A DNA stretch of 64,000 nucleotides, from positions 1-64,000 of the IMG/VR virus record IMGVR_UViG_2061766007_000957; one strand, 5' to 3'. The position numbers were made by a program, and so were the translations under genes. How positions within the stretch are numbered: the first letter of the stretch is position 1; each line of letters starts with the position of its first letter. Positions 1 to 57,339 of the stretch are shown piece by piece. Under the pieces are notes generated by a model that made no database searches, was not told the origin of the DNA, and saw only the letters and a list, made by a program, of their open reading frames with translations. This DNA is from an uncultured virus (IMG/VR IMGVR_UViG_2061766007_000957) (taxonomy: Duplodnaviria; Heunggongvirae; Uroviricota; Caudoviricetes).

Positions 1-200
1 GACGAAAGGCTGGTAGCACCGCCACCGTCTTGTACTATCATCATCCAATAAGCACCCTCGGAAGGTGTAATGTTGGTAACAGAATCTTGCTTGCACATCC
101 ACGACTTACCGTCATAGCGTACAATATCCAAACTATTATATGTAGCACTTGCACTATATGCCCCTTTTGGTATCGGTACTACTTTTGCTAATGTACTCAT
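1..200 (-). CDS. Tail fibre / RBP N-terminal fragment (truncated by window edge)
   Basis: ATG at 200 overlaps the TGA of the upstream gene. Translates MSTLAKVVPIPKGAYSASATYNSLDIVRYDGKSWMCKQD..., clearly paralogous to the N-terminus of 62073..63926. Not in the ORF track. Confidence 0.8.
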   Translation of the reverse strand, partial: MSTLAKVVPIPKGAYSASATYNSLDIVRYDGKSWMCKQDSVTNITPSEGAYWMMIVQDGGGATSLS

Positions 201-751
201 TCAGGCTCGACCCCCCATTTCAAAAATCCATTTGAATCAACCCACATTGTGAAATACCCACCACTGTAAAGAAGCTCTCCGGTTGTCCAGTCTATTGTAA
301 AGTTAGGTGCATGCTCTTCAACAACATCTTCAACATACTCTTTACAATCTTCCGCAATGCCAGCATAATATTTACTGTTATTCTGATAAGTATCATCTCC
401 GCTTGTTACCGGTACGCCACCTCTTTCTCCGACTGCCCACGCTTCAGAATCAACAGCTCTATCATCAGCGATATCAGAATAGTATAAACTGTTATTATGA
501 TATGCAGGATCCGTTGAAGGAACATCACTACCATCTCTTTTACCAATGGCGTATGCTTCAGAAGTCTCTGCATACTCTTCTGCCTGCGCTAATGCTTGCG
601 CTATTTCTTCATAAGTTCCCAATCGAATAACATTACCGGGACTCAGCGTCATATATACATAGCCATTATCAAGACATACAGCAAATTCGCCCGAAGTCAT
701 TCTTGTTGGATCAAAGTCAAGATAATTGCCCCTGCGCATTCTAATCGCCAT
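197..751 (-). CDS. Baseplate/tail-fibre adaptor-like structural protein
   Basis: Follows the tail tip gene; two internal repeats SEA(Y/W)A.G.R.G..V...D..Y.NNS.YY; AGGAGG RBS. Confidence 0.6.
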   Translation of the reverse strand: MAIRMRRGNYLDFDPTRMTSGEFAVCLDNGYVYMTLSPGNVIRLGTYEEIAQALAQAEEYAETSEAYAIGKRDGSDVPSTDPAYHNNSLYYSDIADDRAVDSEAWAVGERGGVPVTSGDDTYQNNSKYYAGIAEDCKEYVEDVVEEHAPNFTIDWTTGELLYSGGYFTMWVDSNGFLKWGVEPE

Positions 752-24405: not shown

Positions 24406-24423
24406 TGTTTTTACTCCTCTCTT

Positions 24424-24828: not shown

Positions 24829-25142
24829 ATCACTATATCCTTCTTCTTTTTGACATCCTCCCAATACTCATTATCAGTTGGGATCTCCCACTTATTCAAT
24901 TTATACCAAAGATCCCGCAAGTATAGCAGGATCTGGATATCGGAGCTGGACTCAAATAACTTAACATTGACAATTTTATGCTTATCTTCATTCCATACAG
25001 CCTGCTTTATAACGATCATCTCAATTATCTTATCCGTCTTATCGCTATAAAACTGGGTTTTGTTGACAAGGATTCTTTTATCAAAATTAAGGTTGATTGC
25101 TTTCTGTAATTTTTTAATTAGTGGCAGATACTTCTTAGCCAT
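24825..25142 (-). CDS. Hypothetical protein
   Basis: 105 aa ORF, coupled to both neighbours. Confidence 0.7.
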   Translation of the reverse strand: MAKKYLPLIKKLQKAINLNFDKRILVNKTQFYSDKTDKIIEMIVIKQAVWNEDKHKIVNVKLFESSSDIQILLYLRDLWYKLNKWEIPTDNEYWEDVKKKKDIVI

Positions 25143-28754: not shown

Positions 28755-29699
28755 TCATAGGGTATTCACAAGTATATAATCCATTACAAATTGTTCTTCG
28801 TATCGACCAGTCTTAATCCCCTTTTCACATTCTCTAACAAGACGTAGTATGCCAACCAGTTCTCCGATCCTATATTTGCCTTTATGTCGCAGGGCGTTAT
28901 TGATTTGCCATTGAGTAAGGCCGGTAGTCTTAGATAGATCCTTCGTAGTCTCACAACTTTGAATTTGTAAGACTGCTTTTGTATTGTTATATAATACAGT
29001 TAGCATTACCATTACAGCTTCTCCAACTGCTTTACATTGTTCATACAAATCAAAACAGCTGGGATCTCGATCCAATATCGCATCCACAAAATCAAATATA
29101 GCATCCTTAGGCGGAGTATATATTGTCCCATCCGTAAGAAGCTGCTGAAAAACCATGTCGTAGTCCGCCAGCTTCATTCCTGCGCCATATTGCTTGATTT
29201 TGTCGATTTCCAATAAACAATGCCCATAATCATTTTCACAAGCCTCTATGAGCTTGTCACAATTATTATTTGATAGGGTAATCTCCTTTTGTATGTATTT
29301 CTTTAGTATTTGCGGTTTTAAGGCCTCAAATTCGCAAATAGTATCTTTATATGCCTTGTAGAATTTGGTGCGCTTATCGAGGCTATTAAGCAACAATATC
29401 AAGCAATTATTCTTTAACAACCCATTATTGAGTTGATCTTGGATCTTTTCATTGTTGATTATCTCCCGGTCATCCCGAATAACGTACAGGCTGTTCTTAG
29501 TAAACATTTGCCGCGATTGCAGGATCCCATATATATCTGTTATGCTATCAACATATTTTATATCTAATGTCAGTACTTCGGCTATCTTGTTAATATAAAT
29601 ACGCTGCACCGCCCATTCAGATCCGGAGAATATCAAAAACGATGGAATATCTTTTGTTTGGATATAGTGTTTGATTGTGTTAACATCCATTACATCCAT
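28755..29699 (-). CDS. holA: DNA polymerase III delta subunit
   Basis: IF.G.E, DKRTKFYK, EIDK, IFDFVDAIL, E.GIKTG motifs; adjacent to holB and dnaX. Confidence 0.8.
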   Translation of the reverse strand: MDVMDVNTIKHYIQTKDIPSFLIFSGSEWAVQRIYINKIAEVLTLDIKYVDSITDIYGILQSRQMFTKNSLYVIRDDREIINNEKIQDQLNNGLLKNNCLILLLNSLDKRTKFYKAYKDTICEFEALKPQILKKYIQKEITLSNNNCDKLIEACENDYGHCLLEIDKIKQYGAGMKLADYDMVFQQLLTDGTIYTPPKDAIFDFVDAILDRDPSCFDLYEQCKAVGEAVMVMLTVLYNNTKAVLQIQSCETTKDLSKTTGLTQWQINNALRHKGKYRIGELVGILRLVRECEKGIKTGRYEEQFVMDYILVNTL

Positions 29700-30526
29700 T
29701 CCTTTCTAATATCTAATATCCACAAATCCACCACGCCAGCTTTTGAGATCCCTTTAATCCGGAGATCCTTCAAATAGGTGCTAGTCACAAGCATACCTTT
29801 CATATAATAATTTTCTCCGGTACTGGTATAGCGATCATAACAAATTTTGATAAACAATTTGAAAAACAATTTCAAATCATACCCGGTCGCATCTTCTTTG
29901 AGCTTTAATTGATCCGCCAGCTTAAATACATTTGCACCATTCACCGTAGATATATTATCTACCGTTTTATTGACAAAGTTAAAAAACTCTTCTATGTTGT
30001 ATGAATATAGCAGATCAATCTCTCCCGGTGTCTCACAAGCATCGACAGCTTTTATAATATCGTTTTTATATCCCTTAAGATCCGCATACTCCTGTAACTG
30101 GCTTGGAAGATAAGGCTGCATCAATAATATAGTAGCCCTGCTCCGGATAGTTTCTAATGTATTATTAACATCAATCAAAGTCATGATAATATATACATTT
30201 TTAGGTGGCTCTTCCGTCACCTTCAACAAAGCATTTTTTGCTGGCGTTGACATATCATCTGCATCCGGAATAAGACATACATGATTTGTGCCAGCTAACT
30301 TATTACTATCCACTATGAGCTGCCGAACATCATCTACAGTCTTACCATATACACTAAAAATATTTTCCATGCTACTAGTTTGACTATTATCAAACTGCTC
30401 TCGAATATATTGAAACATTTCCTTCTTGCCACTACCTTCAGGTCCACAAAAAATACAAAACCGAGGAAACTTATTTGCCTTTATTAACCGGCGAACATTC
30501 TTTAATAATCTCTCCTGTCCTATCAT
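29690..30526 (-). CDS. holB: DNA polymerase III delta-prime subunit
   Basis: IGQ, GPEGSGK, NALLKVTEEPP, TIRSR. Confidence 0.88.
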   Translation of the reverse strand: MIGQERLLKNVRRLIKANKFPRFCIFCGPEGSGKKEMFQYIREQFDNSQTSSMENIFSVYGKTVDDVRQLIVDSNKLAGTNHVCLIPDADDMSTPAKNALLKVTEEPPKNVYIIMTLIDVNNTLETIRSRATILLMQPYLPSQLQEYADLKGYKNDIIKAVDACETPGEIDLLYSYNIEEFFNFVNKTVDNISTVNGANVFKLADQLKLKEDATGYDLKLFFKLFIKICYDRYTSTGENYYMKGMLVTSTYLKDLRIKGISKAGVVDLWILDIRKEWM

Positions 30527-31569
30527 TTTCTTCCTCCTTCTATAAAGCGGACTAGATATGCTTCAATATCATATTTGACTGAACTCGAATATTTAATCTC
30601 CGCGTTAATTTGCATCACAAGATCCAAAAGATCAAAACATATTCCTATATCATAATCATCGAGATCCTGCAACCATTTTGTATATTGATCTAACTTGGGA
30701 ATATTAATATATTTCCAATCGCAGCCAACTATGACCTTTTGAACATCAAGCAAAAACTGCAAATACAATTTAACAAATTGCTTTAATTCTTTGCCCTGCA
30801 AATATAACTGCTCAATGATAGATATAACCTCTTTTGTATCCTGCTCGATAATCTTATCTGTCAAAGTTAACATATCGTCGTATTCAGCTGTTCCCAGCAC
30901 ATTAACTACATTCTGTAATGTAAGCTCCGGATTATATGCCAAACACTTGTCCATCATAGTGATGGCATCCCGCATCCCGCCATCAGCTATCTTAGCAATA
31001 TAATCAATCGCTTCCGGATCAATATTAGAAAATTCACCTGCTTTGTTTTGTTCTGCATTAATGATATAAGTCAATCTCCTTACAATACCTGCATGACTTA
31101 TTCTTTGAAAATCATATCGCTGTACCCTGCTCAATATTGTCTTTGGAATCTTTTGCGGATCTGTTGTGCAGAAAATAAAAATGGATTTTGCTGGCGGCTC
31201 TTCGATCAACTTTAGAAAAGCTTGCCACCCGGTGTTACTGATACTATGGCATTCATCAATGATAAATACCTTATATTCACTGTCAATACTTTTTGTCTTT
31301 GCCTGCTGAATGATGCTTCGAACATCATCTACTCCATTATGACTGGCCGCATCCATCTCAATTGGATTGCCTTGACCATTGTTGATCTCATTTGCGAAGA
31401 TACGGGCACAAGTAGTTTTACCTGTGCCCGCACCACCACAAAACAGATATACATTCTTTATCGTCCCGGTCTCAAGTTGCTGGCGAAGAATAGTTTTGAT
31501 GCTTCCCTGCTCCATCACATCTTCAAAATCCTGCGGACGATATTTGACTGCTAAGGTCTGTTCTGACAT
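30523..31569 (-). CDS. dnaX: DNA polymerase III gamma/tau (clamp-loader ATPase)
   Basis: KYRPQDF, GGAGTGKTT, IIDECH, LK.IEEPP, TILSR, GGMRDA. Confidence 0.94.
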   Translation of the reverse strand: MSEQTLAVKYRPQDFEDVMEQGSIKTILRQQLETGTIKNVYLFCGGAGTGKTTCARIFANEINNGQGNPIEMDAASHNGVDDVRSIIQQAKTKSIDSEYKVFIIDECHSISNTGWQAFLKLIEEPPAKSIFIFCTTDPQKIPKTILSRVQRYDFQRISHAGIVRRLTYIINAEQNKAGEFSNIDPEAIDYIAKIADGGMRDAITMMDKCLAYNPELTLQNVVNVLGTAEYDDMLTLTDKIIEQDTKEVISIIEQLYLQGKELKQFVKLYLQFLLDVQKVIVGCDWKYINIPKLDQYTKWLQDLDDYDIGICFDLLDLVMQINAEIKYSSSVKYDIEAYLVRFIEGGRK

Positions 31570-38126: not shown

Positions 38127-39206
38127 TTACTGCTCTTCCAATAATGCAATGACCTGCGTAATATTTCCATCAACTAATTTGATACTGGAGTCTTTGCCAT
38201 AATGAAGCTGAATACTATCTCCGGTATTTGCCTTGAGCTGGGTAATAAGCATATCAATATCAATGTGACAGGTATATGGCTTGAAATTTTCATTTTCCAA
38301 ATACTTCAAAGTCTCCACACCGTTACTGGTTTTACTGCTAATGTCAACTCCATCTTCAGTAAAAGTCAGGACAATGGCTTTATTATCATACTGGCCTACA
38401 AATAAAGCTATTCGATCTAAAATCGCAAGAAACGCTGCCTTATCCAATTTACATTTACTGTCAAATTCTTCTTTCAGTAAATCACTAATGGCATCGATTT
38501 GATAATCCTCTACTCCTTCCATAGAATGACCAAATACAACACAGTCCGGAGAATCAAATAACAAAACATCCCCACTGCGGATGAATTTAATTTTTTCACA
38601 AGTCATTACATCAAGTAAATTCATTGTTTCCGCACTGATAAGTAATGGATCCTCTCCAAATACATTTGCATCTAAGCTGGACACTTTATAAGTATCAGTC
38701 GCTACAATTCTTTCCCCTGCATAATATCTGGTATAAACCGGTACTTCCATAGTAACAGCAAGAGCAGGCTTAACAGATGCAAGAATAGTTTTTATTGTAG
38801 CCAGCGCAACTTCTATCCCTTTTGATGTTTTTACTTTTGCAACTGGATCCGGAAACTGAATTGTATTCCCTTCTTCATCTAATGGCAATTCAATTTTATA
38901 ATCGCCATTACCTTTCACATTTAAGATCCCATCATTCACTTCTAATGAAATGGTTTCACAAGTCATTTTTCCAATCAGCTTACTAAACTGCTCAACCTGC
39001 ACTACCACATAAAAATCTTCTCCCATTACATTATCCTGATTGATATACAGGTAATTGCTGGCATCTGTCGTAATAAGGGTAGCTTTGTTATTCTCAACCT
39101 TAATAGCCATCAATCCAGTCACCGGGATCAGCTTATTTTGACTAGCTCCCTTGATAGATCTGCTGACAAGCTCTTTGAAGATGTCAGCCTTCATAGTTAA
39201 TTGCAT
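38127..39206 (-). CDS. dnaN: DNA polymerase III beta sliding clamp
   Basis: 359 aa, three-domain pattern with TD motifs (ITTD, VATD), FP, LDRI.LF. Confidence 0.85.
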   Translation of the reverse strand: MQLTMKADIFKELVSRSIKGASQNKLIPVTGLMAIKVENNKATLITTDASNYLYINQDNVMGEDFYVVVQVEQFSKLIGKMTCETISLEVNDGILNVKGNGDYKIELPLDEEGNTIQFPDPVAKVKTSKGIEVALATIKTILASVKPALAVTMEVPVYTRYYAGERIVATDTYKVSSLDANVFGEDPLLISAETMNLLDVMTCEKIKFIRSGDVLLFDSPDCVVFGHSMEGVEDYQIDAISDLLKEEFDSKCKLDKAAFLAILDRIALFVGQYDNKAIVLTFTEDGVDISSKTSNGVETLKYLENENFKPYTCHIDIDMLITQLKANTGDSIQLHYGKDSSIKLVDGNITQVIALLEEQ

Positions 39207-39222
39207 AATACTTACTCCTTTC

Positions 39223-39747
39223 CTAGAACAATTTTTTTCTTGTTGTATCTATATCAGGCTTTATAAGCTGATTAAGATCCGCATCACTTATTTTAACCTG
39301 TTTAGGAACAGTTAAAAAACTATCTATATGAAATGAATTATCTATACGCATTTGTATATACAATTCAATTTGATTAACAGTATACAATCGGATCATTCGT
39401 CTACCATACAAGTCATTAACGCTGATGGGAATAGCATCTTTATACTCCGCCAGCTTTAACTTCACAAGCCTTTTCATGACTTCAGAATCCTGCATGGCAA
39501 ACCATGATTTATATAAATTTGATTGTACTTGGGTTTTACTAAAAAATTCTCCTAGTCTAGTACCGGGATGTTTTTCTAACATTCGGTCTCCGGTTTTTAC
39601 AGATTTCATGTAGAGTTCTAAATTGCAAATAGAATTGTCAAATACTTCTTCAAGCCAATTACCGTATTCTCTGGTGGTAGTAAGGACAGGGCTAACTGCC
39701 CTATCCTTATTCACCAAAACAAATGTATTAAGACATCTGTTCTTCAT
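39223..39747 (-). CDS. Unknown protein in the modification cluster, C-terminal RKKLF
   Basis: Overlaps the yhhQ stop; ends TTRKKLF. Confidence 0.7.
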   Translation of the reverse strand: MKNRCLNTFVLVNKDRAVSPVLTTTREYGNWLEEVFDNSICNLELYMKSVKTGDRMLEKHPGTRLGEFFSKTQVQSNLYKSWFAMQDSEVMKRLVKLKLAEYKDAIPISVNDLYGRRMIRLYTVNQIELYIQMRIDNSFHIDSFLTVPKQVKISDADLNQLIKPDIDTTRKKLF

Positions 39748-40420
39748 GCGCAACTTCTTTCCTTTCCCTTGTCAACAAATAAAAGATCGGAGTATCAACA
39801 GCGGCAAGAATAAATTTCAGGAAATACTGGCCTACCATCATTGCCCACAATGCCGGTCGCATCTGAGCATCAAATAACCATCCAAAACCAAGACCAAATG
39901 AAATACCAATAAACACTACAGTATCCCATATCTGACTTGTCATTGTAGAAGCATTATTCCAAATCCATCTCCCGCCCTTTGTACTGCCATGCTTCTTAAT
40001 ATACTTGTCTCTAATCTTATGGAAGATCCAAACATCCCATGACTGGGAAATATAATAAGCTACAAGAGATCCCACTACAAAGATCCAGTTCTGTCCCAGC
40101 AACATATCATATGCTCCTTGCATATCCTGATTTACTGCCGGTAATTGCTGAGTGAATATAATTAACAAGGTTGCTAAAATCTGTCCAACAAATCCCCAGC
40201 GAACACAAAGATTAGCTTCCTTCTTGCCCCATATCTCACCAATTACATCTGTCATCAGAAATGTAATTGCATAACATACAGCTGCTCCCGGTAATTGAAT
40301 TGTTCCACCAAAAAGAGGAATCCCGGTTTCGACAGTCTTTGCCGTAACTACATTGGCAATGACCAAAGATACTACAAATAACATACAACATAAAATTAAA
40401 TTGTTTTGATTTTTTTTCAC
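39728..40420 (-). CDS. yhhQ: Queuosine-precursor (preQ0/preQ1) transporter, YhhQ/Vut_1 family
   Basis: IANV...K, TFL.TDVIGEIWG, GSL.AY..SQ.WD, NN.STM.SQ..DT..F; multiple TMs. Confidence 0.92.
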   Translation of the reverse strand: MKKNQNNLILCCMLFVVSLVIANVVTAKTVETGIPLFGGTIQLPGAAVCYAITFLMTDVIGEIWGKKEANLCVRWGFVGQILATLLIIFTQQLPAVNQDMQGAYDMLLGQNWIFVVGSLVAYYISQSWDVWIFHKIRDKYIKKHGSTKGGRWIWNNASTMTSQIWDTVVFIGISFGLGFGWLFDAQMRPALWAMMVGQYFLKFILAAVDTPIFYLLTRERKEVAHEEQMS

Positions 40421-40430
40421 TTCTTTTTCT

Positions 40431-40470
40431 CCTTTATTTTTTAATGTCGGTCAGGACTATAAAACGACCC
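40431..40470 (-). ncRNA. preQ1 class I-like riboswitch
   Basis: GUCG-UU-UUAU-AGUCCUGAC-CGAC-AUUAAAAA-AUAA-AGGAG: H-type pseudoknot with an A-rich tail abutting the yhhQ Shine-Dalgarno. Confidence 0.65.
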
Positions 40471-40526
40471 ATCTATTATCAAGAACAGGTATGCCATTAT
40501 CTCCTTTCTCATACTTAGATTTGTTC

Positions 40527-40997
40527 TTAATAAATCACTTTGTTCAGTTCGCCATACTCAGCATACAAATCCTGCGCAGGCTTTCTATCCATTTCTTCGA
40601 TCTCCAATACAGTAGTATCTGCACAACCGGCCTGTATAAAATTATATATGAAATCATCTCTGAATCCAATACCTTCACAATCTTTTGGTAAACCGGATAC
40701 ATATACCTTCTTTATATTTGCCCAAATAATTGCTCCCATACACATCGGACAAGGATAACCTGTTGCATATAATTCGCATCCAGTTAAATCATATGTTCCC
40801 AGCTTTTCGCAGGCTTTACGTATTGCCATGATCTCCGCATGAGCGGTAGGATCATTATTTGCTAATACGTGATTTGAAGATACTGCGATGATCTCCCCAT
40901 CCTTAACAATTACCGCACCAAACGGACCACCTTTGTTTTCCTTCATTGTTTTTGATGCTTCTTCAACACCTAACTGCATGATCTCTTCTTTGGTCAT
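40527..40997 (-). CDS. guaD: Guanine deaminase (cytidine-deaminase fold)
   Basis: GGPFGAVIV, DPTAHAE, PCPMC, GF.DDFIY typical of B. subtilis GuaD-like enzymes. Confidence 0.85.
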   Translation of the reverse strand: MTKEEIMQLGVEEASKTMKENKGGPFGAVIVKDGEIIAVSSNHVLANNDPTAHAEIMAIRKACEKLGTYDLTGCELYATGYPCPMCMGAIIWANIKKVYVSGLPKDCEGIGFRDDFIYNFIQAGCADTTVLEIEEMDRKPAQDLYAEYGELNKVIY

Positions 40998-41707
40998 TCT
41001 TCTTCCTCCTTTTTTAACGCGGGATCCTTTATCCCATTTGCTTCAAACGCGGCTGCCCTATCAATACAGGTACCACATTTACCACATGGCTTATCTGCAC
41101 CATTATAACAGCTCCATGTCAACTCATATGGAGTCCCAAGCTCCAGACCCATCTTAACCACACCAGCTTTATTGAGATTGACAAGTGGCGCTTTCAAATG
41201 CACCTTGCCATAGGTACCAATAGATATAGCGAGATCCATCGCATCCGTAAATGCTTCGGAACAATCCGCATACGCATTACCTGCTGCATCATCAGCATGA
41301 GCTCCCAAGTATATATCAACTTCATCCTCGGGATATATCGCCATCGCCATCGCTGCAACAGAAGCCAGCAACAAACCATTTCTAAATGGCACATATGTTG
41401 ACACCATTCCTTCTCCATTCTTTGCAATCTGCTCCGCATAAGAATGTTCCGGGATCTTTTCAGTGGACTGACTTAACAATGGACAATTACTGTCTTCCAT
41501 GATCCCGGTATTAGATAGATCAATTACTTTATGATCCACCTTGTAATACATGGCCACCCGAGCTGCGCATTCCAATTCTTTAGAATGCTTCTGTCCATAA
41601 AAAACGGAAACCGTAGTTACGTTTTCTGCTCCCAGCTCTTTAACCGCCAGCGATACGCAAGTTGTAGAATCAACTCCGCCACTGTTTAACACTAATGCTT
41701 TTTTCAT
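40994..41707 (-). CDS. queC: 7-cyano-7-deazaguanine synthase
   Basis: SGGVDS, YGQKH..EL, TYVPFRN, Y.DC, TWSCY....PCGKCGTC..R. Confidence 0.95.
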   Translation of the reverse strand: MKKALVLNSGGVDSTTCVSLAVKELGAENVTTVSVFYGQKHSKELECAARVAMYYKVDHKVIDLSNTGIMEDSNCPLLSQSTEKIPEHSYAEQIAKNGEGMVSTYVPFRNGLLLASVAAMAMAIYPEDEVDIYLGAHADDAAGNAYADCSEAFTDAMDLAISIGTYGKVHLKAPLVNLNKAGVVKMGLELGTPYELTWSCYNGADKPCGKCGTCIDRAAAFEANGIKDPALKKEEEE

Positions 41708-41717
41708 ACTTACCTCC

Positions 41718-42422
41718 TTAAAATAGTTTTCTATTTTGGCTATATGGATTTGTTCCCTTGTAAGTATTTACCAGGTAATATAATCCATCATGGAGCTCAA
41801 ATATACTTCGATCTTTTAATCGGTTTTTTACTGGCTCTTTATCATTGCCACCAACAACCCCGCAATTAAATACCCGCTGAATATGGGTTGAAGAATAATC
41901 AGATAATTTTTCCCGTAACAATGACATCAAATATCTCTTTTGATAACCTTCTGATGGATTTAACATGGTGGTTATTTCCATCCATATCTTATCAACATCT
42001 AAGGATTCCCTTTGCCCGGTATTTAGATAATGCAAAATGGATCTTCCTTTTATTCCGTGTAATGGGAAAATGATTTCGCCCATCAGGTAATTAGAAAGGT
42101 CTGCATATACTCCGGGAAGTATCAAATAATATTTAGTGCAAGCAGGAAATCGGTTTTGTATAACTACCTGCGCGCCCCTGAATACCTCTTCCCTTTTATC
42201 AGGGTCCACATCTTCAAGATTTAGATCGTATGGCTCTATAATTTCATCGGGTTCTAATATGCCATACTTTCCGGAAAATATGACCCAGTTTATAAAATTC
42301 TTGATAGCATAATTTTTGCGGATAAGAAAGTTAGATCCAACATACATATCAGCAGCCTTTGTCCTGATGCCTGCTTTATCTTTTCCACAACCAATTATAC
42401 ACAAGCAATCCGATCCATACAT
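41718..42422 (-). CDS. DUF6884/YaaA-like protein, C-terminal RKLF
   Basis: IIGCGK.K, AADMY.G..F, I.SGKYG.L.PDE.IEPYD. Confidence 0.7.
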   Translation of the reverse strand: MYGSDCLCIIGCGKDKAGIRTKAADMYVGSNFLIRKNYAIKNFINWVIFSGKYGILEPDEIIEPYDLNLEDVDPDKREEVFRGAQVVIQNRFPACTKYYLILPGVYADLSNYLMGEIIFPLHGIKGRSILHYLNTGQRESLDVDKIWMEITTMLNPSEGYQKRYLMSLLREKLSDYSSTHIQRVFNCGVVGGNDKEPVKNRLKDRSIFELHDGLYYLVNTYKGTNPYSQNRKLF

Positions 42423-43678
42423 CAGAATAATTTCCTCTTCTTTGCTACCGGTTTATATTCGATGTCTGCAAACTTCTTTTTCATATACCGGGCATTATGC
42501 ATAATTCTTTTGTCACGGCTATCTGCAAGCTCTTCAAGCGTAAACCCGAACTCTTCTATCGTCTTGTTAAAAGCTTCCTGTAATTCGGGTGTCAAATGAG
42601 AAAAATGATTAGGATCGTTTTTCTGCTGACTACTTACTGATACTACGCCAGCATCTGTCATAATAGATCCAGTTGCAGCTGTCATGATCCATGAAGTACT
42701 ATCTGCCGAAGTGATCGGATATTTTATAAGCAAACTTTTATCGGTCATTCCAAACGCATGCACCTTTACATTGGGATTAGATGATTTACTGATAACATCA
42801 AAACATTGTTCCAAAAACCGATCTCTCACTTCAGCTGGCTTTCCTACCATACCGCCCAGCGCTATATACGGAATATGATCCCCATTCTCGTCTACCCATT
42901 CAAGAGCCTGCTTCAAAAACTCAATAGGCTCGCCGACATGAAATGTATATAACAGGCCTTCTGGTTTTTTCATTTTAGGCCTCATATACAAATAGTTCTC
43001 CCAGGTCTTTTGAGCTGCAATTCTTACCTCTTCATGGGTTGGCAACCGGCCACTATTACGATCACCGGGAATAACGTCGATCTGCCCGTATAAACTAATA
43101 TAATCCGCCCGCTCATTGATCCAGTTTATATATTGATCCACATCAATAACTTTACCCTGCGTCCATGCAGAAAATGCTCCGGAATCTATAAACAGTTTTC
43201 CCTTTGCAGTAACATCGTTCTTATATTTATCGACTGCCTTCGCAGTTAAATAACTAAACAAAATGTTGCTTGGTTCTTCCTCATATGCAACTTTCATCAC
43301 TTCTTCTTTTTCCGGTCCAACAAGATATAAATCCAACACTCTTCTCCTTTCTTCTATTCCCAGCTTATCGCTGCCAGCAAAAAATAAATCCATCTCTTCA
43401 ATCCTCTTAATAAATTTGTTTACCTGCCTTTTTTCATCGGAAGCTGCATAAGATAAAAGACAATTAAATTGATCTAATAATACTGATGCGCCACCGGCTT
43501 TACTTTGATTTGCCCCTGCTAAGTATAAGTCCATTTCCTTTACCTTAGAAATTAGTTTATCAACTAATGCCTTTTGATATCCGTAACTCAATAAACGATT
43601 ATATCCCATCAGATAAAGATCTAAATATAATTCTTCTGAGATCTTAAATTGATATCTCCCTGCAAAATACAAATCCAT
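42422..43678 (-). CDS. dpdA: DpdA-like DNA-guanine transglycosylase (TGT fold) with repeated N-terminal module
   Basis: LFIDSGAFS, D.IP, TFH.GE, IALGG, KVHAFG, SADSTSW; adjacent to queC and yhhQ. Confidence 0.82.
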   Translation of the reverse strand: MDLYFAGRYQFKISEELYLDLYLMGYNRLLSYGYQKALVDKLISKVKEMDLYLAGANQSKAGGASVLLDQFNCLLSYAASDEKRQVNKFIKRIEEMDLFFAGSDKLGIEERRRVLDLYLVGPEKEEVMKVAYEEEPSNILFSYLTAKAVDKYKNDVTAKGKLFIDSGAFSAWTQGKVIDVDQYINWINERADYISLYGQIDVIPGDRNSGRLPTHEEVRIAAQKTWENYLYMRPKMKKPEGLLYTFHVGEPIEFLKQALEWVDENGDHIPYIALGGMVGKPAEVRDRFLEQCFDVISKSSNPNVKVHAFGMTDKSLLIKYPITSADSTSWIMTAATGSIMTDAGVVSVSSQQKNDPNHFSHLTPELQEAFNKTIEEFGFTLEELADSRDKRIMHNARYMKKKFADIEYKPVAKKRKLF

Positions 43679-43688: not shown

Positions 43689-45998
43689 CTATATCTGTAA
43701 TGGCTCCCCGTACCATTGTTTTGTTATCTCCACATCACATTTTACTGGCATATCCAAAATACTTTCGGCTGCTTCTGACATTATACTTGCCAAAAGACTA
43801 GAACATTTTTCAACGTTCTCCTTTGGACATTCTGCAATAATTTCATCATGTACCGGAATAAGAAGTTTGAACCCTAAACTTTGCAGCTCTTCTGATTTAT
43901 TGAGTTTGATCATGGCTAATTTTGTTAGATCAGCTGCGCTTCCTTGTATGCGGGCATTAACGCATTGTCTTGTTGCATCTGCAATCTTTGCCCCATTATC
44001 AATAATCCAGATCCCTTCTTTATTTGCTTCTTCAAATATTTTTCGCTTTTCGTTTCCCCAGCATCGGGACAGCTTTCTAAGATAATAGTTGATAGTATCC
44101 TGCGGAACTTCTGTTGTATTATATTCTGGTTCATTCATAAAATCAAAATCAAGAAGATCATCATCCTTCGGCGCACCATCTTTCCATTTGAATTCAAACT
44201 CTTCTAATTGAAGATCCGGTAGCCTTCTCTTGCGGCCACATACAGTTGTTACATATCCAAACTCATAAGCCATATCTAAAGAATCCTGTTCAAATTGTTT
44301 TATCGCTGGGAATCCTCTAAATACACTTTGCTTTATATCCTTCGCCTTTTGTTCTGAGCATTTGAGCTGCTCCGCAATACTCTTTTCCCCGCGCCCATAT
44401 AACACTCCAAGCAATATACTCTTTGCTTGAGTCCTGCGCTCTTTACCTTTCTTGTTAGTCTTACCAGAAGAATCAAATTCCTTGCATTCTTCGTATGGGA
44501 CATTAAACGCTTTACTGGCTATCTCTGAATATAGATCCTTGTCAGCCATAAAAGTATCATACATTTGAGAATCCCCAGCTTTACGACATAAGGCTGCAAG
44601 ACATTTTGGTTCTTGCTGGCTATAATCTGCCGACATTAAAACATATCCATCAGATGCAACAAACATCTTTCTAATATCCTTGTTATGAGATGGTATGTTT
44701 TGTAAGTTTGGATCACTACTACTCATTCTCCCAGTATCCGCACCATACTGATTAAACCTGCAATGAATACGCCCATCATTCGGATTAACACATTCAGGCA
44801 GCTTCTCAATATAAGTTGTCAATAATTTCTTAATGCCCCTATACTCTAAAATTGCATTAGATATTGGATGATCTAATTTACTGAGGATCTCTTCTCCAGT
44901 ACCCCGCGGATTCCTTTTATCGGGACATTTTAATCCCAGCACATCATATAACATAATTGCTATCTGAGATGCAGAACTGATGTTGATGGGATATTCAAGT
45001 TTATTGTTTATTCCCTGCTCCGCTCGATACCGATCTAAGTCTTCTCCAAAATCATCACACAGTCGGTAAAATTTTTCCTTAGCATCTTCTAACATTTTAT
45101 TGTATTGAACATTAAGTTGATTTGCATAATCCATATCAAGCAGGATTCCATTATCCTCCATACTTGTGACAGCTTCAATACATGGCATCTCTATATTTTT
45201 GAATACCCAATATAACTGTCTCATATCTTCCCGATCATGATCCGCCCTTAAATGCTTCCTCTGATAGCTGCATAATTCATAAGTAATTTCCGGATCATGA
45301 GCTGCATATAGATATCCAACAGTTGGTGGGATCATAGTAAATGGAATGCCCTTAAATAAATCATCAAATCTAAACGCATCCCCTTCGCCAGCTAAACAAT
45401 ATTTCTTATGCAAATCTTTTAGATTTTTATGGGGCTCATTTTCATTTAAGATCCGGCCAGCTAAAAACCCATCCCATGTACAGTATATATTTTTGATGCC
45501 AGTTTGATTTCGTATAAACCGCAAATCAAAATTAGCATTGAACATATCTATCTCCGGACGCTTTTCTAATAAGCGATTAAACTCCTGAGATACAAAGTCA
45601 ATGCTTAATTGATTTGGAACAAACTCATTCGTAATATAACTGATATGATTAAGGGGTATGTAAGCAGCTGGCTGCCCTTGCGTAAATGGACATATGCCTG
45701 CTATATGATTTAAGAGCGGATCTAATCCATCGGTTTCGGTATCAATGGCTATATATCCATTACCTATACATTCGGTAATAAAATCGTGCAGGACTTCTTC
45801 TTCCCGAATGAGCTGATATCGGTCTTTGTATTGTCCAAGATTCTTTTCAACTTCCGCCTTGATCTGGTTAATGCGGGCAAGCATAGTAGATCCACTTCTG
45901 ACAGTTGATCTTGCTTTAGATATGGAATTAGATTTCCCAGCAATCTTTTTATCCTGAGCTTTATTATTAAGCCTATTCGGCACTTCAAACAACGCCAT
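43689..45998 (-). CDS. polA: Family A DNA polymerase with 3'-5' exonuclease
   Basis: DTETDG, FNANFD, YAAHD; TGRMSSSDPNLQNIP, DYSQQE, R..AK....G..YG, VHDE. Confidence 0.96.
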   Translation of the reverse strand: MALFEVPNRLNNKAQDKKIAGKSNSISKARSTVRSGSTMLARINQIKAEVEKNLGQYKDRYQLIREEEVLHDFITECIGNGYIAIDTETDGLDPLLNHIAGICPFTQGQPAAYIPLNHISYITNEFVPNQLSIDFVSQEFNRLLEKRPEIDMFNANFDLRFIRNQTGIKNIYCTWDGFLAGRILNENEPHKNLKDLHKKYCLAGEGDAFRFDDLFKGIPFTMIPPTVGYLYAAHDPEITYELCSYQRKHLRADHDREDMRQLYWVFKNIEMPCIEAVTSMEDNGILLDMDYANQLNVQYNKMLEDAKEKFYRLCDDFGEDLDRYRAEQGINNKLEYPINISSASQIAIMLYDVLGLKCPDKRNPRGTGEEILSKLDHPISNAILEYRGIKKLLTTYIEKLPECVNPNDGRIHCRFNQYGADTGRMSSSDPNLQNIPSHNKDIRKMFVASDGYVLMSADYSQQEPKCLAALCRKAGDSQMYDTFMADKDLYSEIASKAFNVPYEECKEFDSSGKTNKKGKERRTQAKSILLGVLYGRGEKSIAEQLKCSEQKAKDIKQSVFRGFPAIKQFEQDSLDMAYEFGYVTTVCGRKRRLPDLQLEEFEFKWKDGAPKDDDLLDFDFMNEPEYNTTEVPQDTINYYLRKLSRCWGNEKRKIFEEANKEGIWIIDNGAKIADATRQCVNARIQGSAADLTKLAMIKLNKSEELQSLGFKLLIPVHDEIIAECPKENVEKCSSLLASIMSEAAESILDMPVKCDVEITKQWYGEPLQI

Positions 45999-46213: not shown

Positions 46214-46927
46214 TTAGTATACGTCCTCGTTGCTGCGGCGCGAAGGAGTTCTCCGTCTTACCGGGGCTTCCTCTTCCTGCTTACCGCCACGCCGTCTGAC
46301 GGGGCGAGCTTCTTCCGTATCATCATCCGTCGGCGGGAACTGACCTTCTGTCAGGTAATACTCCATATCTTCCGCCGTCTTATCAAGTACATGATTCCCA
46401 AGGATGGGAGACATTGCAGGGAGATCCTCTAACGTAGTATCATCAGGCTGGCCGATCGGATATACATTGTACTGGGTCTGCTGATCACCAGATGCGCCAT
46501 CACGCTCGATCTCAAATATCTGGCCTACCATATTCGGATACCGGGAAGCCATGCTAGTAAGCTTCTTAAACCAGGTCTTGCCCCGCTCCCATATCTGCAC
46601 CTTATCCTCGTCAATGTTATAGATCGGGATAAACAGCTTGACAACCGTATATTTGCCTTCGCGGCAAAACGGGCATACATCAACCGGATCCTTATAATCC
46701 CGCAAACAGTTAACGTATCTCTTACGGGGTCTGCCATTCTTGCCCATTAGGACTCTACCATTTTCATCGACCATATCGATTTCATGGACAGTATCCCCTA
46801 CAATATCATCAACGCTGGCATACATAAATCTGACCTGCGCCACTTCCTTATCTTCTTTGAGCTGAAAGAACCCAGCTCCTCCTTGGCCGCCGTACTTATC
46901 GACCTCGTCATGTCTAACTCTTGCCAT
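46214..46927 (-). CDS. ssb: Single-stranded DNA-binding protein (gp32-like, Zn)
   Basis: FFQLK.D.E...VRF, C.....CPFC, IWERG, IERDG..GD..T.Y; acidic tail. Confidence 0.75.
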   Translation of the reverse strand: MARVRHDEVDKYGGQGGAGFFQLKEDKEVAQVRFMYASVDDIVGDTVHEIDMVDENGRVLMGKNGRPRKRYVNCLRDYKDPVDVCPFCREGKYTVVKLFIPIYNIDEDKVQIWERGKTWFKKLTSMASRYPNMVGQIFEIERDGASGDQQTQYNVYPIGQPDDTTLEDLPAMSPILGNHVLDKTAEDMEYYLTEGQFPPTDDDTEEARPVRRRGGKQEEEAPVRRRTPSRRSNEDVY

Positions 46928-48143: not shown

Positions 48144-49084
48144 AGCACTTTCTCCAATCTTTTTAATTCTTCCCCGGTACATTCATTTGCATCTTTACGT
48201 CCACCGGGCAGCAAGTATTCAAATATCAATTTATTTGTAACATTCTTTTTAATTCGCTGGCGAGCCTGCATCCCTGCTTTATCCATATCGGTACAAAGGA
48301 TCAGTTCCCTGCATGGCAACTCTCTAAGCTGCTTGTATTGCAACTCCGTCCCAAGACCATTCAGCGCCACCGCACATCTTTTAATTGTCCAGAATGATAA
48401 TGCGTCAAGCATTGATTCGCATACAATGACTGCTGACGGGAATACTCTTTGTTGATATAATTCGAAAAGTCCGTAGAGTGGCTTTTCGGCTTCTTTCGGA
48501 TAATTAAAATACTTAGTATCAACAGACCGACGGGCAACAAATAATGTGCCACCAGATTTATCCCGTACAGGAAAAGTAATGCAGCGAGTATCTTTATCAT
48601 ACCCAATATCAAACTCCTCAATAACTTCATCTGTTAACCCCCTCTCATACATGTATGGATGATAGTATCTATAGTGCTCTAATATTTCTTCTGGAACATA
48701 AGTTATTTGTTTTTCTTGTGTCTTGCCTCTGCTGAGCTGCAATTCGATCGGCTTTCGATCCTCGACCTGAATAGTTGCATAATTTTTCAGTAACCACTTC
48801 CATCCAAAAGATCCAACCTGATCATTGATATATCCAAAGCAATATGAAATGACTTCATTAAGTTCGTGGATCTCCCCACATGCAAAACAATGAAATTTGC
48901 CATCGCTTTTTCTAATCCCAGCACTAGGTCTTCGTTCATTGTGATATGGACAGCATACCATGATATCATTCCCGATATCTTTTATCTTATCAAATTTTTG
49001 CAAGCCTTGCGTAGCCAGCTGCGCATCGATCTCCATCAATATATCATTCAGGCTTGCATTAAATTCTACGCCATTGATTTTCAT
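48140..49084 (-). CDS. dnaG: DNA primase (CHC2 Zn finger + TOPRIM)
   Basis: CPYH.E..PS...CFACG, ITFP, CES..DA, DMDKAG, KDANE. Confidence 0.92.
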   Translation of the reverse strand: MKINGVEFNASLNDILMEIDAQLATQGLQKFDKIKDIGNDIMVCCPYHNERRPSAGIRKSDGKFHCFACGEIHELNEVISYCFGYINDQVGSFGWKWLLKNYATIQVEDRKPIELQLSRGKTQEKQITYVPEEILEHYRYYHPYMYERGLTDEVIEEFDIGYDKDTRCITFPVRDKSGGTLFVARRSVDTKYFNYPKEAEKPLYGLFELYQQRVFPSAVIVCESMLDALSFWTIKRCAVALNGLGTELQYKQLRELPCRELILCTDMDKAGMQARQRIKKNVTNKLIFEYLLPGGRKDANECTGEELKRLEKVL

Positions 49085-50367
49085 TAGAAAACATCCTCGT
49101 TGCTTTCTTCTTTTTCTTTTGGCTTTCTTTCCCTGCGCCTTATCGGTTCATCATTATTCAGAACAGTTGGTATAAACTCACCAATATTAGCATTCCATGT
49201 ATAAGCAATCTTTCCACCAACTCCTCCGTTCCTTTGCTTCTTAACCTGAATGATCAAAGTATTGTCTTTTTGCTTTAATGAAATAATCTTGCTGGCATTG
49301 TAACTAATACCATCGCTGTCCCTGATATTTTCCAACTCAGGGAGATCATCTGTATTCTTATCAGTAATGCCGCCCCGGTTTGCTTGTACAACTGCCAGTA
49401 CCGGAACTCCGACTTCCATTGATAGGCTCATAAGATCCTCAGCTATGTTTGTCAGAGAAGTGGTTTTATTATCGTTTCTGCGACCCCGCTCATCACTTAA
49501 ATATGTTATGCCATCAATGGCTATAATATCAAGATGATTTTGCTTTATCCAGTTCCGTAACTTTGTTACAGTTATTTGCCTATTGAAGTCATTGGGGGTA
49601 GCAACTAAAAATTGATTTTCCTTAGTAAGCAGATCATCTATATAAGTCCGGTATTCATCTTCTGCGATGTTATTATTACCCCACATAAGACCTTTATTAT
49701 CAAAATTCTTATACAAAGTATCAAACCTATATCCGATACTGCTGGCTCCCATTTCCGGACTAATATAGCCAACATTAAATCCGATCTCCCATATATGAGA
49801 ACATATTTTTTCAAGCAGCCATGACTTACCTTGATTTGTTCTTGCAAAGATCACAAATAATTCTTCTCTTCGCTGAATCCCATGAATTAGATCATCAAGC
49901 TCCGGTAACCCAGTTGTAAAGAACCATTCTTTTTGATGATCCCTTCTTTCAACAAATTCATCATATCGCTGCTTTGCCTGCGATATAATATCAATTCCTC
50001 CCAGCTTATAAGAAGGTTGTAATTCTTTTGTGGCCTGCAACATGTATTCAGCAGCTGCATTAGCATCCGTCTGTAACAGATCAGCAATCTTCTGAACAAT
50101 GGGAACTGATTTTTGAAATAAATATTCTTCCCGAATTGTTTCCACCAAATAACGATCACTTTCGGTAACCTCAACCAATTCTATATTATCAAACTTACTT
50201 AGAAAGGTCGCTTTGTCAGGAGTGTTGCCGTACTGCTTATAATGATCCAATATGAAATTGTATTCGTCTTCGTATTCTATGAAATACTCTTGGGTAAGTT
50301 GATTGTTTTCGATAATATCTATGCTGCCAGTTTGAAGGCATTTTGAAAGAATCTGGAGTGCAACCAT
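49084..50367 (-). CDS. dnaB: Replicative DnaB-like helicase
   Basis: TGL..LD, ARTNQGKS, SPEM, IDG, QANR, KQRNG. Confidence 0.9.
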   Translation of the reverse strand: MVALQILSKCLQTGSIDIIENNQLTQEYFIEYEDEYNFILDHYKQYGNTPDKATFLSKFDNIELVEVTESDRYLVETIREEYLFQKSVPIVQKIADLLQTDANAAAEYMLQATKELQPSYKLGGIDIISQAKQRYDEFVERRDHQKEWFFTTGLPELDDLIHGIQRREELFVIFARTNQGKSWLLEKICSHIWEIGFNVGYISPEMGASSIGYRFDTLYKNFDNKGLMWGNNNIAEDEYRTYIDDLLTKENQFLVATPNDFNRQITVTKLRNWIKQNHLDIIAIDGITYLSDERGRRNDNKTTSLTNIAEDLMSLSMEVGVPVLAVVQANRGGITDKNTDDLPELENIRDSDGISYNASKIISLKQKDNTLIIQVKKQRNGGVGGKIAYTWNANIGEFIPTVLNNDEPIRRRERKPKEKEESNEDVF

Positions 50368-54749: not shown

Positions 54750-55493
54750 TTAAGCCATCGGATTAATAAGTGTTCTAAAATGATAACACTGGATGTTATA
54801 TCCACCGGCTCCGATGGTCTGTACTTTTGCTTTGCCTTTTGTTCCAATAATGAAACCATTCAGATCATCCTTTGCTCCAATACTTAAGTTGCTGGCATCC
54901 GTGATCTGTCCTACGATTGCATTTGTTCTTTCAATAATGAAATCGTATTTACGGTTGGCTTCCTGTTCCAGATCTTTGTCCAGCTTTTTCAGATCCAGCT
55001 CATTTCGATCCATGTATTGGATGATCCAATTCCATTTCGAAAGATAAGCTTCTCTGACCTTATGCTCTTCTTCTCGCAGCTGCTTGCGTTGCTCCTTCTC
55101 GGAATAAGGAATCTTCCAATTCATCAAATCACAATAGTTACGTTCATATTCTGCATATTCCTGCTTTGCTTCCAAATATGCAGGCACTGCGTCGATATAG
55201 TGCTGGCGAACCCTTGCCTTCCAGTTATCCAGGAATTGAGTGATAACAACCACATTGCGGCTTGCTGCCTTTTCCAATTCCTGCATCAACTTCTCATTAT
55301 AATCTGCTAATGCCTTTTTTGCATCCTCTAAATCTTTCAATGCCCAGCGCTTATCCTGTTCGCTGTAATAATACGGGTTGACCTCCCAGTCAGTTGATTC
55401 CGCCATCGCGATACGATCCAGCTTCTTTACAATCTTGGCAATTTCTGCTTCCTTGCCTGCAATCCTCTTCTTTAAAAATTCTACACTTGCCAT
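54750..55493 (-). CDS. Hypothetical early protein (coiled coil + conserved C-terminus)
   Basis: AAGGAGG RBS before the ATG at 55493; LNG.I.G..G...V.TI.AGGYNIQC.H.R. Confidence 0.75.
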   Translation of the reverse strand: MASVEFLKKRIAGKEAEIAKIVKKLDRIAMAESTDWEVNPYYYSEQDKRWALKDLEDAKKALADYNEKLMQELEKAASRNVVVITQFLDNWKARVRQHYIDAVPAYLEAKQEYAEYERNYCDLMNWKIPYSEKEQRKQLREEEHKVREAYLSKWNWIIQYMDRNELDLKKLDKDLEQEANRKYDFIIERTNAIVGQITDASNLSIGAKDDLNGFIIGTKGKAKVQTIGAGGYNIQCYHFRTLINPMA

Positions 55494-55611
55494 TCTGCTA
55501 CCTCCTTTGTGGTTTATAGTGTTTGTAGTGGAGAAGCTTTGCTGTCCTGCCAATATCGACCGCGTAGCTTGATTACCACGACCGGTACCCGGTTTTGCAA
55601 TATATCAGCCC

Positions 55612-55648
55612 TCGTAAATATTATACGATATATTTATGGTAAATACAA
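55612..55648 (-). promoter_or_regulatory. Sigma-A promoter with shared 17-bp quasi-palindrome
   Basis: TTGTAT-17-TATAAT. Confidence 0.85.
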
Positions 55649-55650
55649 CC

Positions 55651-55692
55651 AAAAAATAAAAATAGCAGATTTCCGTAGAAACCCACTATTTT
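55651..55692 (-). terminator. Rho-independent terminator closing the 59.4-55.7 kb cassette
   Basis: AATAGTGGGTTTC-TACG-GAAATCTGCTATT-TTTATTTTT. Confidence 0.8.
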
Positions 55693-55709
55693 CAATAATT
55701 TGATGGCAT

Positions 55710-56081
55710 TTAGAATTCAATATTTGAAAGGTTTTCTTCTATTATATGGCGTTCTTCAGGTAAATCGGTGCTGTTATATAGGATATGCAGAAACTCCAAT
55801 ACTTCTTTGCATATAACCGCAATATGAGTTAATACGGCTTCCTTTTCTGTCCCAGTTAATTGATATTGCCTTTTAATATCACAATAACGTTTATAGCTGG
55901 GGAGTATATCAGTCAATTCCTTCCCTACCACATCATTTTTAATTGCTGACACTTGATTTAAGGCTTCTGAATTAAAATGTCTTACAATGTATAGGGACGC
56001 CAGCTTTTCACAGTTGTTAAAAGTTGTATCGTTGTCCTCCAATTCTTGAATTGTATTCTCTACCAGCTGCATATCTAACAT
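55710..56081 (-). CDS. Conserved-cassette hypothetical protein
   Basis: I.ELE....TF.NCEKLASLYIV. Confidence 0.7.
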   Translation of the reverse strand: MLDMQLVENTIQELEDNDTTFNNCEKLASLYIVRHFNSEALNQVSAIKNDVVGKELTDILPSYKRYCDIKRQYQLTGTEKEAVLTHIAVICKEVLEFLHILYNSTDLPEERHIIEENLSNIEF

Positions 56082-56647
56082 ATGCTCACCTTCAATTCTT
56101 CTTCACATAGCTTTTGATATTTCTTATGCTTGCGTCCCTGCTCCTCGATGATCATAGTCATATCATAATTGGTTGCTTCTTTATTCAGCCAATAGCGTTC
56201 AGCCTTTTTAAGCTCACAGTCCACATCCTCTATAAACTCTTTAACCTTCATGGCGCTGGCTACTTCATTTATGGCAATCAATTCTTTATACATCTGTTCA
56301 TAGAGCTTCTTTGTATCCCGCTCCCATTCAACCCATTTTGTAAGACCATTCTTTACTCCATTCTGTTTTGTTGAAATATCAACATCAGATCTTACATGGT
56401 TATACCAACTGTCCGGTATGAGATTTGGATCCTCAATTTTTTCTTCGGGAATCAAATTATCATGATGATTGATAAAGTACCTATTCAAACTTCTATATCC
56501 CAGCGTTTCTTTCAAGAAATGGTATTCATGGCATCTTTTATAACCCTTCAATCCGAGAAAGTCATAATAGTTTGCCATTTGATCATGGATCATCATTCCT
56601 TTTATCATATGAGATGCCAGCTTACTATATATCTCTTTCAGTTCCAT
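56075..56647 (-). CDS. Ferritin-like four-helix-bundle protein
   Basis: H.QMA.Y.DFL.L.GY...HE.H...E, WVEWE, D...E helical pattern. Confidence 0.65.
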   Translation of the reverse strand: MELKEIYSKLASHMIKGMMIHDQMANYYDFLGLKGYKRCHEYHFLKETLGYRSLNRYFINHHDNLIPEEKIEDPNLIPDSWYNHVRSDVDISTKQNGVKNGLTKWVEWERDTKKLYEQMYKELIAINEVASAMKVKEFIEDVDCELKKAERYWLNKEATNYDMTMIIEEQGRKHKKYQKLCEEELKVSIC

Positions 56648-56867
56648 TATTTTCCTCCAATAATTTTATGATATGGTCGAGCTTGATATCCTGCATCTCA
56701 AGATGGGAATGGATCTCCTGTAATAACATTTCAGCTTTATCTGCTAAATCATTTTGCAATTCCTGCTTATCGGATTGAGTTACATTTTCATCGAGATTTA
56801 TTAAACCGATAACAAAACTCATCACGGTCAATATATCCAAGAAATCAAGCTGACCATTATTTGTCAT
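56625..56867 (-). CDS. Small membrane/coiled-coil protein
   Basis: FLDIL.V.SF.IG..N..EN..Q. Confidence 0.7.
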   Translation of the reverse strand: MTNNGQLDFLDILTVMSFVIGLINLDENVTQSDKQELQNDLADKAEMLLQEIHSHLEMQDIKLDHIIKLLEENNGTERDI

Positions 56868-56868
56868 A

Positions 56869-57246: not shown

Positions 57247-57264
57247 TTACTCATCCTCCTTGTT

Positions 57265-57295
57265 AAAAATAAGAGGAGCAGTTGCCCACTCCTCT
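57265..57295 (-). terminator. Intra-cassette terminator
   Basis: AGAGGAGTGG-GCAA-CTGCTCCTCT-TATTTTT. Confidence 0.75.
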
Positions 57296-57339
57296 CGATA
57301 CATAGGCATACTATATATGCTCACCAAATATAAATTTGT

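Follow-up and report, generated by a model that had tools for sequence, protein, structure and literature searches.

The window analysed here comprises 64,000 nucleotides and covers nearly the entire 64,584-base record (96% complete) of an uncultured caudoviricete, IMG/VR IMGVR_UViG_2061766007_000957. It carries a minus-strand gene cluster, flanked by the genes of a DNA polymerase (polA) and of a beta-type sliding clamp (dnaN), in which three proteins ended almost identically: a DpdA-like DNA transglycosylase (KKRKLF), a DUF6884 protein (QNRKLF) and a third protein, hereafter called the orphan (TRKKLF). A sequence-only reading of the window had drawn attention to these ends and proposed that they tether deazaguanine-modification enzymes to the phage clamp. 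The shared ends and the position of the cluster between polA and dnaN were both recovered here (Table 1), as was the lack of the tail in the metabolic members, with QueC ending in KKEEEE, the GuaD-like deaminase in NKVIY and the YhhQ transporter in EEQMS. Among 82 non-overlapping minus-strand open reading frames (ORFs) of at least 80 aa, these three were the only ones to end in LF (0.22 expected, P=0.0014). For [RK]KLF, a motif defined post hoc, 0.002 were expected and P was about 1e-9.

Profile searches showed that the phage encodes its own replication set, composed of PolA, primase, DnaB, SSB, a three-subunit clamp loader and the clamp. The start of PolA with MALF, noted from the sequence, was located, and loader subunit delta displayed SRQMF at residues 62-66. 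The clamp plug of E. coli delta, QAMSLF, starts at residue 69, yet it occupies the same alignment columns, a homologous site. FolE, QueD, QueE and QueF were not found in the record by tblastn; YhhQ, QueC and the guanine deaminase appear, from their sequences, to form a salvage-type deazaguanine set. GuaD accompanied DpdA in 6/6 related loci.

Table 1. Tagged genes, neighbouring genes and replication genes of the window, with the support for each assignment.
Feature	Position	Strand	Support or remark
Beta-type sliding clamp, DnaN fold, remodelled peptide pocket	38127..39206	-	B. subtilis DnaN profile match, E 9e-21
Clamp E357/E358, replacing E. coli R365/L366	38133..38138	-	structural superposition ranges
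Orphan, 174 aa, compact fold with loose tail	39223..39747	-	structure model
Orphan tag TRKKLF and stop	39223..39243	-	LF in 76/78 homologues
YhhQ/Vut_1 queuosine-precursor transporter, untagged	39728..40420	-	TIGR00697 above cut-off
GuaD-like guanine deaminase, untagged	40527..40997	-	top PDB match guanine deaminase 1wkq/1tiy, E 1e-34
QueC (preQ0 synthase), untagged	40994..41707	-	PF06508 E 4e-53; TIGR00364 above cut-off
DUF6884 (YaaA-like fold) protein, C-terminal extension of about 90 aa	41718..42422	-	Pfam PF21818 62 bits, cut-off 30
DUF6884 tag QNRKLF and stop	41718..41738	-	LF in 5/5 of subtype
DpdA-like DNA transglycosylase, 418 aa	42422..43678	-	TGT-type core from about residue 110; phrog_887 TGT-like E 2e-51
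DpdA tag KKRKLF and stop	42422..42442	-	LF in 117/120 homologues
PolA, family A with 3'-5' exonuclease	43689..45998	-	N-terminal MALF at 45987-45998
Clamp loader delta	28755..29699	-	TIGR01128 above cut-off; SRQMF at 29502-29516
Clamp loader delta-prime	29690-30526	-	profile matches
Clamp loader gamma/tau	30523-31569	-	profile matches

Conservation and distribution of the tail

The tail was strongly conserved in each of the three proteins. Among the best 120 of 1606 DpdA homologues (close relatives, at least 55% identity), the three that departed from LF ended in LI, and 102 of the 117 LF-ending ones had K or R at position -5. L417 and F418 were invariant in 68 aligned rows, and the linker before them varied freely; the linker of DUF6884 was likewise variable. 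In the structure model of the orphan (predicted local distance difference test, pLDDT, 89) a coil followed residue 160, and pLDDT fell to 71 and then 54 in the last blocks. The two orphan homologues without LF were shorter (159 and 103 aa). For DUF6884, LF was constant in the subtype of the window (226-234 aa); a broad DUF6884-like sample displayed it in 25/149 proteins, from 13/50 of the nearest to 3/49 of the farthest.

Related loci were collected through DpdA (34) and through the clamp (68), the latter with a clamp alignment narrowed for the search, as the clamp used as a single query had no IMG/VR match. After clustering at 90%, these loci supplied 1332 ORFs, 87 of which ended in LF or LW. 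Carriers were DpdA (35/37), the ligase-like Nlig-Ia domain (13/16), the orphan (5/6), an S-adenosylmethionine (SAM) methyltransferase (5/5), GT2-like proteins (6/7) and two other DUF6884 subtypes (3/3), as well as a GNAT/ATPase protein; for DNA methyltransferases, a count that is not exhaustive gave ten with the tail and three without. None of the QueC (12), QueD (16), QueE (15), FolE (13), YhhQ (22), GuaD (7) or phosphoribosyltransferase (6) proteins of this census carried it. The tag was thus common to at least eight unrelated families, and its distribution supports a restriction to DNA-acting proteins, the tag apparently sorting by substrate.

The element was also found at N-termini. PolA displayed M-x(0-6)-L[FW] near its start in 38/42 full-length homologues, the three Nlig-Ia proteins devoid of a C-terminal tail started with M-x-L-F, and the Nlig-Ia copies of phages Dp-1 and MS1 started with MQKSLF and MAQRTLF. 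Most ParB-like partners of the TAGT glycosyltransferases started with x-L-F as well. These sequences support an x-L-F element that would be portable between the two termini. Nlig-Ia itself is a stand-alone NAD-ligase N-terminal domain of 103-160 aa (L018:19941-20402, L035:9859-10218 and 14 others) in which the LF element stood at the N-terminus, the C-terminus or both, depending on the copy; it had no clear match within the genome of the window.

The bacterial beta-clamp-binding motif is Q-phi-x-[LM]-[FL], or QL[SD]LF (PMC11139829). The canonical Gln was present in the DpdAs of cultured relatives (Dp-1 RQRRLF, MS1 KQNRLF, Flasso SQGKLF), PolA of Flasso started with MFQNSLF, and many DpdAs ended in KKLSLF. 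Comparison of these relatives supports the view that the basic tails grade into the canonical motif.

The tail was then considered against the presence of a clamp gene, a phage being called clamp-less when it had no phrog_947 match. (A search for T4-type clamps with PF02916 gave no match anywhere, controls included, and was hence uninformative.) In a set of 25 named DpdA phages, hand-picked for diversity out of 261 matches, LF occurred within the last five residues in 15/18 phages with a clamp vs 0/7 without (Fisher P=0.00025, the lineages not being independent). A motif-based IMG/VR sample (80 of at least 116 loci fetched, and the 40 whose contigs reached 35 kb or more tested) gave 16/18 vs 0/3 when restricted to records of 88% completeness or above. 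Left out of this count were L225, whose gene is cut, L256, whose frame stops after 55 residues, and 17 records of lower completeness. Further clamp-less relatives were sought in IMG/VR, where a Sonali query matched only itself and a phi3ST:2 query nothing. The expectation that only clamp-encoding phages bear the tail agreed with the count in clamp-less DpdA phages (0/10, drawn from few independent lineages); the exceptions were two less complete records with LF and no clamp found (L196 and L251, see below). In clamp-less phage SfI, DpdA ended in QLAFEV, which might be a host-clamp motif.

The phage clamp and its peptide pocket

The structure model of the clamp (pLDDT 92) displayed the three-domain beta-clamp fold, with Z about 33-35.5 against bacterial DnaN structures (S. 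pyogenes DnaN: Z 35.5, root-mean-square deviation 2.1, 346 residues aligned). In INPHARED, clamp matches were confined to seven records from five phages, namely phiCTP1, FA88, Flasso, MS1 and Dp-1. C-terminal positions were mapped by structural ranges, where residues 1..358 superposed on 1..366 of E. coli and 1..357 on 1..365, as the hhalign alignment with DnaN of E. coli put the last strand in the wrong place; positions 152 and 175 were mapped by sequence alignment.

The pocket was surveyed in 49 clamps from related loci. By sequence-based mapping, the columns of the hydrophobic subsite I (L155, T172, L177 and V360) kept their hydrophobic character, with Y/L, T/S, I/V and I/V in most of them. 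The surroundings were remodelled: the window clamp displayed V155, Y173, A354, L355 and E357 in place of R152, H175, M362, P363 and R365. Arg was found at position 152 in 0/49 clamps (Lys in two), position 365 was E/D in 30/49 and K/R in 0/49, and position 366 was D/E in 38/49. E. coli DnaN and 5/5 DnaNs from the genome bins holding the phages kept R/K152, P363 and R365.

The tails displayed the opposite charge. Net charge was positive in 78/87 LF/LW enders. In 193 tails, motif position 1 was K/R in 91% and Q in 4%, and position 2 was hydrophobic in 18%; the window proteins have K, N and R instead of Gln at position 1 and R or K at position 2. In bacteria, the clamp pocket lies in positive surroundings and its ligands have mostly negative flanks (PMC11139829). 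The BcepGomr/9g-like clade appears, in its sequences, as the mirror image of this charge pairing: 32/34 distinct DpdAs ended in L[FW], 31 of those 32 with Gln; net charge was zero or negative in 25/32 tails, and G-x-[RK] was retained in 27/31 flanking clamps. In 9g-, Iggy- and BcepGomr-like phages (L039-L042, L045, L047, L048 and L124-L127), dpdA was located upstream of the clamp and polymerase genes, with 0-2 small genes in between.

Tagged proteins and their surroundings

DpdA of the window was 36-40% identical to those of MS1, Dp-1 and Flasso (Dp-1 36%, E 1e-48). D165, D201, H307 and D326 were invariant in 68 aligned rows, as was DSGAF; DSGAF, D201, H307 and D326 are presumably TGT-type catalytic and base-binding residues. 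The NCBIfam DpdA model gave 22 bits vs a cut-off of 200, and a DpdA profile had no significant match among PDB sequences. Residues 1-110 (43333-43678, minus strand) consisted of four to five degenerate tandem copies of the first strand unit (M-D-L-Y-x-A-G ... LLSY). By strict pattern, 120 homologues of 300-523 aa had 0 to 5 such units. Two internal copies (near 43531 and 43390) had an ATG start preceded by an AG-rich stretch and may represent internal starts or spare modules.

DUF6884 proteins are YaaA-like and probably DNA-binding, and a B. subtilis member has been located at DNA lesions, with a model in which it flips a base (PMC11701544). Of the CxxxK and LSAxxG motifs described for the family in the same paper, the window protein kept the first (CGKDK) and read FSGKYG for the second. 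Its hhalign comparison with a phage DUF5591 (ArcS core) protein occupying the same slot gave a probability of 1% (E 0.055). Other DUF6884 subtypes lay directly behind dpdA, and one database protein was a fusion of TGT and DUF6884-like parts. The subtype of the window was absent from all 58 related polA-clamp loci, so its tie to the pathway is loose; as a guess, its substrate might be the inserted base or abasic by-products.

The orphan starts at TTG 39753 for the ORF finder and at ATG 39747 (174 aa) in the database protein. It had no Pfam or PHROG match, no Foldseek match at E<=0.001 in PDB or viral models and no usable Atlas match. A weak resemblance to Dachshund/Ski DNA-binding domains (Z 5.7, root-mean-square deviation 2.8, 89 residues aligned) was below the trusted level. 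It accompanied DpdA in 6/6 loci (33/58 loci have DpdA, redundancy not removed) and is likeliest a DNA-binding accessory factor. As to the suggestion that the tail implicates two uncharacterised proteins in the pathway, co-occurrence favours the orphan and not this DUF6884 subtype. The tail is also found on DNA methyltransferases, the GNAT/ATPase protein and the ligase-like domain, so that sharing it does not by itself place either protein in the pathway.

In related phages (loci L051-L117), the polA-dnaN interval was an exchangeable slot, holding DpdA cassettes, TAGT with a short ParB-like protein, DNA methyltransferases, GNAT/ATPase, GT1- and GT2-like proteins, radical SAM proteins or UDP-galactopyranose mutase; it likely holds undescribed base modifications. 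The tagged class I SAM methyltransferase mentioned above (282-293 aa) lay close behind dpdA (L007:8342-9208, L014:11147-11995) and is a candidate for methylating the inserted base.

A different kind of end was observed in the replication proteins. SSB (46214-46927, minus strand) ended in SNEDVY and DnaB (49084-50367, minus strand) in SNEDVF; acidic D-x-F ends were retained in homologues of both, and an L-E-E-I-F end was frequent in primase homologues. These appear to form a second tail class in the clade, resembling the tails of T7 gp2.5 and gp4, which are acidic and end in Phe. Elsewhere on the minus strand, an ORF run at 54750-58590 with a weak BclA C-terminal domain match (56869-57246) and N/Q/M-rich proteins is possibly sporulation-related cargo, and the ORFs at 15588, 16100, 17646, 19355, 22426, 22819 and 24424 (15588-24864) had a similar W-I-T-I-N-G-x-H-I-P start. 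Bins holding related DpdA contigs were labelled Clostridiales, Tissierellaceae, Romboutsia and Izemoplasmatales, binning being weak evidence of host.

Proposed clamp docking, its alternatives and known systems

We consider it probable that the tail attaches DpdA and the neighbouring tagged proteins to clamps loaded onto freshly made phage DNA, coupling modification to replication. Its presence on DNA-acting proteins only, its gradation into QxxLF, its occurrence at either terminus, its likeness to the delta plug and its absence from clamp-less phages all point to a clamp-binding peptide, and the charge-reversed pocket lends new support to the phage-specific code that had been suggested from the window. 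The basic x-L-F tail would be a motif tuned to the phage's own clamp in preference to that of the host. The phage loader, with delta relying on a two-hydrophobe plug of its own, would put this clamp onto phage DNA, and PolA would grip it via its N-terminal M-x-L-F. DpdA, DUF6884 and the orphan would dock by inserting Leu-Phe into the hydrophobic subsite, and their Lys/Arg run would pair with the acidic residues replacing bacterial Arg365 and Leu366, Arg152 being lost as well. DpdA, concentrated on newly made phage DNA, would swap guanine for a 7-deazaguanine, most likely preQ0. Because the genome is devoid of FolE, QueD and QueE, the precursor would be imported by YhhQ or completed by QueC; released guanine would be removed by GuaD.

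Several observations weigh against this proposal. Some probable DNA modifiers in the same slot are devoid of the tail, namely TAGT (0/16), GT1-like proteins (0/7) and three methyltransferases. L196 and L251 (79-81% complete) have LF and no clamp found, and five loci or phages (phi3ST:2, R26L, Flyfo, L210 and L221) have a clamp match and no DpdA LF; in phi3ST:2 two neighbouring proteins end in VNLF instead, R26L DpdA ends in QQYLLGDL and the Flyfo clamp match is partial. The correlation between clamp and tail rests on few lineages, five of the seven named clamp-less phages being actinophages, and in a rough tree built from 190-residue cores the tail could have arisen once or a few times. The charge co-variation is essentially a contrast between two clades, not many independent changes. 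The window tags also have neither Gln at position 1 nor an aliphatic residue at position 2, both of which raise affinity on bacterial clamps (PMC11139829). Finally, 9g DpdA alone was enough for modification of plasmid DNA in E. coli, where its own clamp was absent (PMC6884629), and T4 alpha-glucosyltransferase binds gp45, yet the share of glucosylation was mostly set by expression and clamp binding was not its main determinant (PMC13216743). These last two results temper the functional claim and leave the idea that docking spares host DNA unsupported; such sparing is kept only as a corollary, and a rather doubtful one.

That the tag binds beta-clamps generally, the host clamp as well or better, with no private code, is unlikely. 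LF alone can bind bacterial clamps, whose pocket is conserved across species (PMC11139829), the Q-type tails of relatives are canonical, and the 9g result fits this explanation. However, host-type DnaNs keep R152 and R365, the E. coli clamp is bound less tightly when a positive charge lies near position 1 (PMC11139829), and the tails have charges of +2 to +4; the tag was also absent from clamp-less DpdA phages, those with most to gain from a host clamp. Docking on another phage hub, be it PolA, the helicase or SSB, seems about as unlikely. The acidic ends of SSB, DnaB and primase indicate that other peptide pockets are in use, and acidic tails, or DNA, could be partners for a basic tail; against this, PolA and delta themselves carry an x-L-F-type element, the motif grades into QL[SD]LF and the charge of the clamp pocket co-varies with it. 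A membrane anchor or a protease degron is very improbable, even though such signals look similar, with hydrophobic residues at the terminus after a basic stretch. MinD-type membrane-targeting helices have a hydrophobic face at i, i+3/4 and i+7; among the 193 tails, position -5 was hydrophobic in 1% and position -6 in 6%, leaving no amphipathic face, and the element, which occurs at N-termini too, is limited to proteins acting on DNA. Chance, or a common descent of the gene ends, which could be invoked for a motif defined after being seen in Lys-rich proteins, is largely refuted by the conservation counts, by the P value for LF alone within this genome and by recurrence in unrelated families.

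A wider proposal can be made, at somewhat less than even confidence. A large clade of Dp-1/phiCTP1-like phages of Firmicutes may use an orthogonal clamp code, with charge-swapped pocket and tags and no cross-binding between host and phage. Any enzyme entering the polA-dnaN slot, be it DpdA, a methyltransferase, an acetyl- or glycosyltransferase, DUF6884 or an orphan, would join the phage fork by gaining a four-residue end, and a terminal basic LF would mark, genome-wide, DNA-modifying or repair enzymes yet to be discovered. Such a code would account for the targeting of modification to the phages' own DNA and, should charge reversal give selectivity, would provide a natural orthogonal clamp-ligand pair. 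The tag flags the orphan, the DUF6884 subtypes, the stand-alone ligase-like domain and the GNAT/ATPase protein as DNA-acting. It is borne by cultured phages (9g, Iggy, Dp-1, MS1 and Flasso).

A short-motif tether of this kind recalls DNMT1, which PCNA recruits through a PIP box so that maintenance-type modification is tethered to a sliding clamp; that system differs in its eukaryotic clamp, in methylation and in its unrelated proteins. DpdA systems have been described in Dp-1 (dPreQ1), 9g, CAjan and Iggy (PMC6884629, bioRxiv 2023.04.13.536721, PMC10484667, PMC7544227). Like them, the window combines DpdA with QueC and YhhQ, and it shares clamp, loader and gene order with Dp-1, MS1 and Flasso, whose DpdAs end in LF; unlike them, it is devoid of FolE, QueD, QueE and QueF and adds GuaD, DUF6884 and the orphan. 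The word 'clamp' is absent from the main texts of these four papers, whose supplementary gene tables could bear on co-occurrence, and those texts do not address how a post-replicative DpdA finds and modifies phage DNA before packaging. In the literature covered, which included few subscription papers and main texts only, neither a DpdA clamp motif nor a charge-reversed phage beta-clamp was found.

Compared with the bacterial clamp motif (PMC11139829), the phage tags share the terminal Leu-Phe, the loose tail, the N- or C-terminal position, the DnaN-fold clamp and the use of one element by polymerase, loader delta and DNA-processing clients. They differ by Lys/Arg in place of Gln1 and usually of the hydrophobic second residue, by positive flanks, by a clamp that has lost R152, H175, M362, P363 and R365 and is acidic at 365/366, and by clients that are DNA-modifying enzymes. 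The nearest parallel in function is T4 alpha-glucosyltransferase with gp45 (PMC13216743), likewise a post-replicative DNA-modifying enzyme and the phage's own clamp, binding being predicted in the present case. There, the clamp is trimeric and 5-hydroxymethylcytosine is glucosylated; here, the clamp is of the beta type and one tag is found on many interchangeable enzymes. Clamp-tethered DNA modification is thus already known in T4, and the conserved tag of DpdA is a real and strongly conserved feature.

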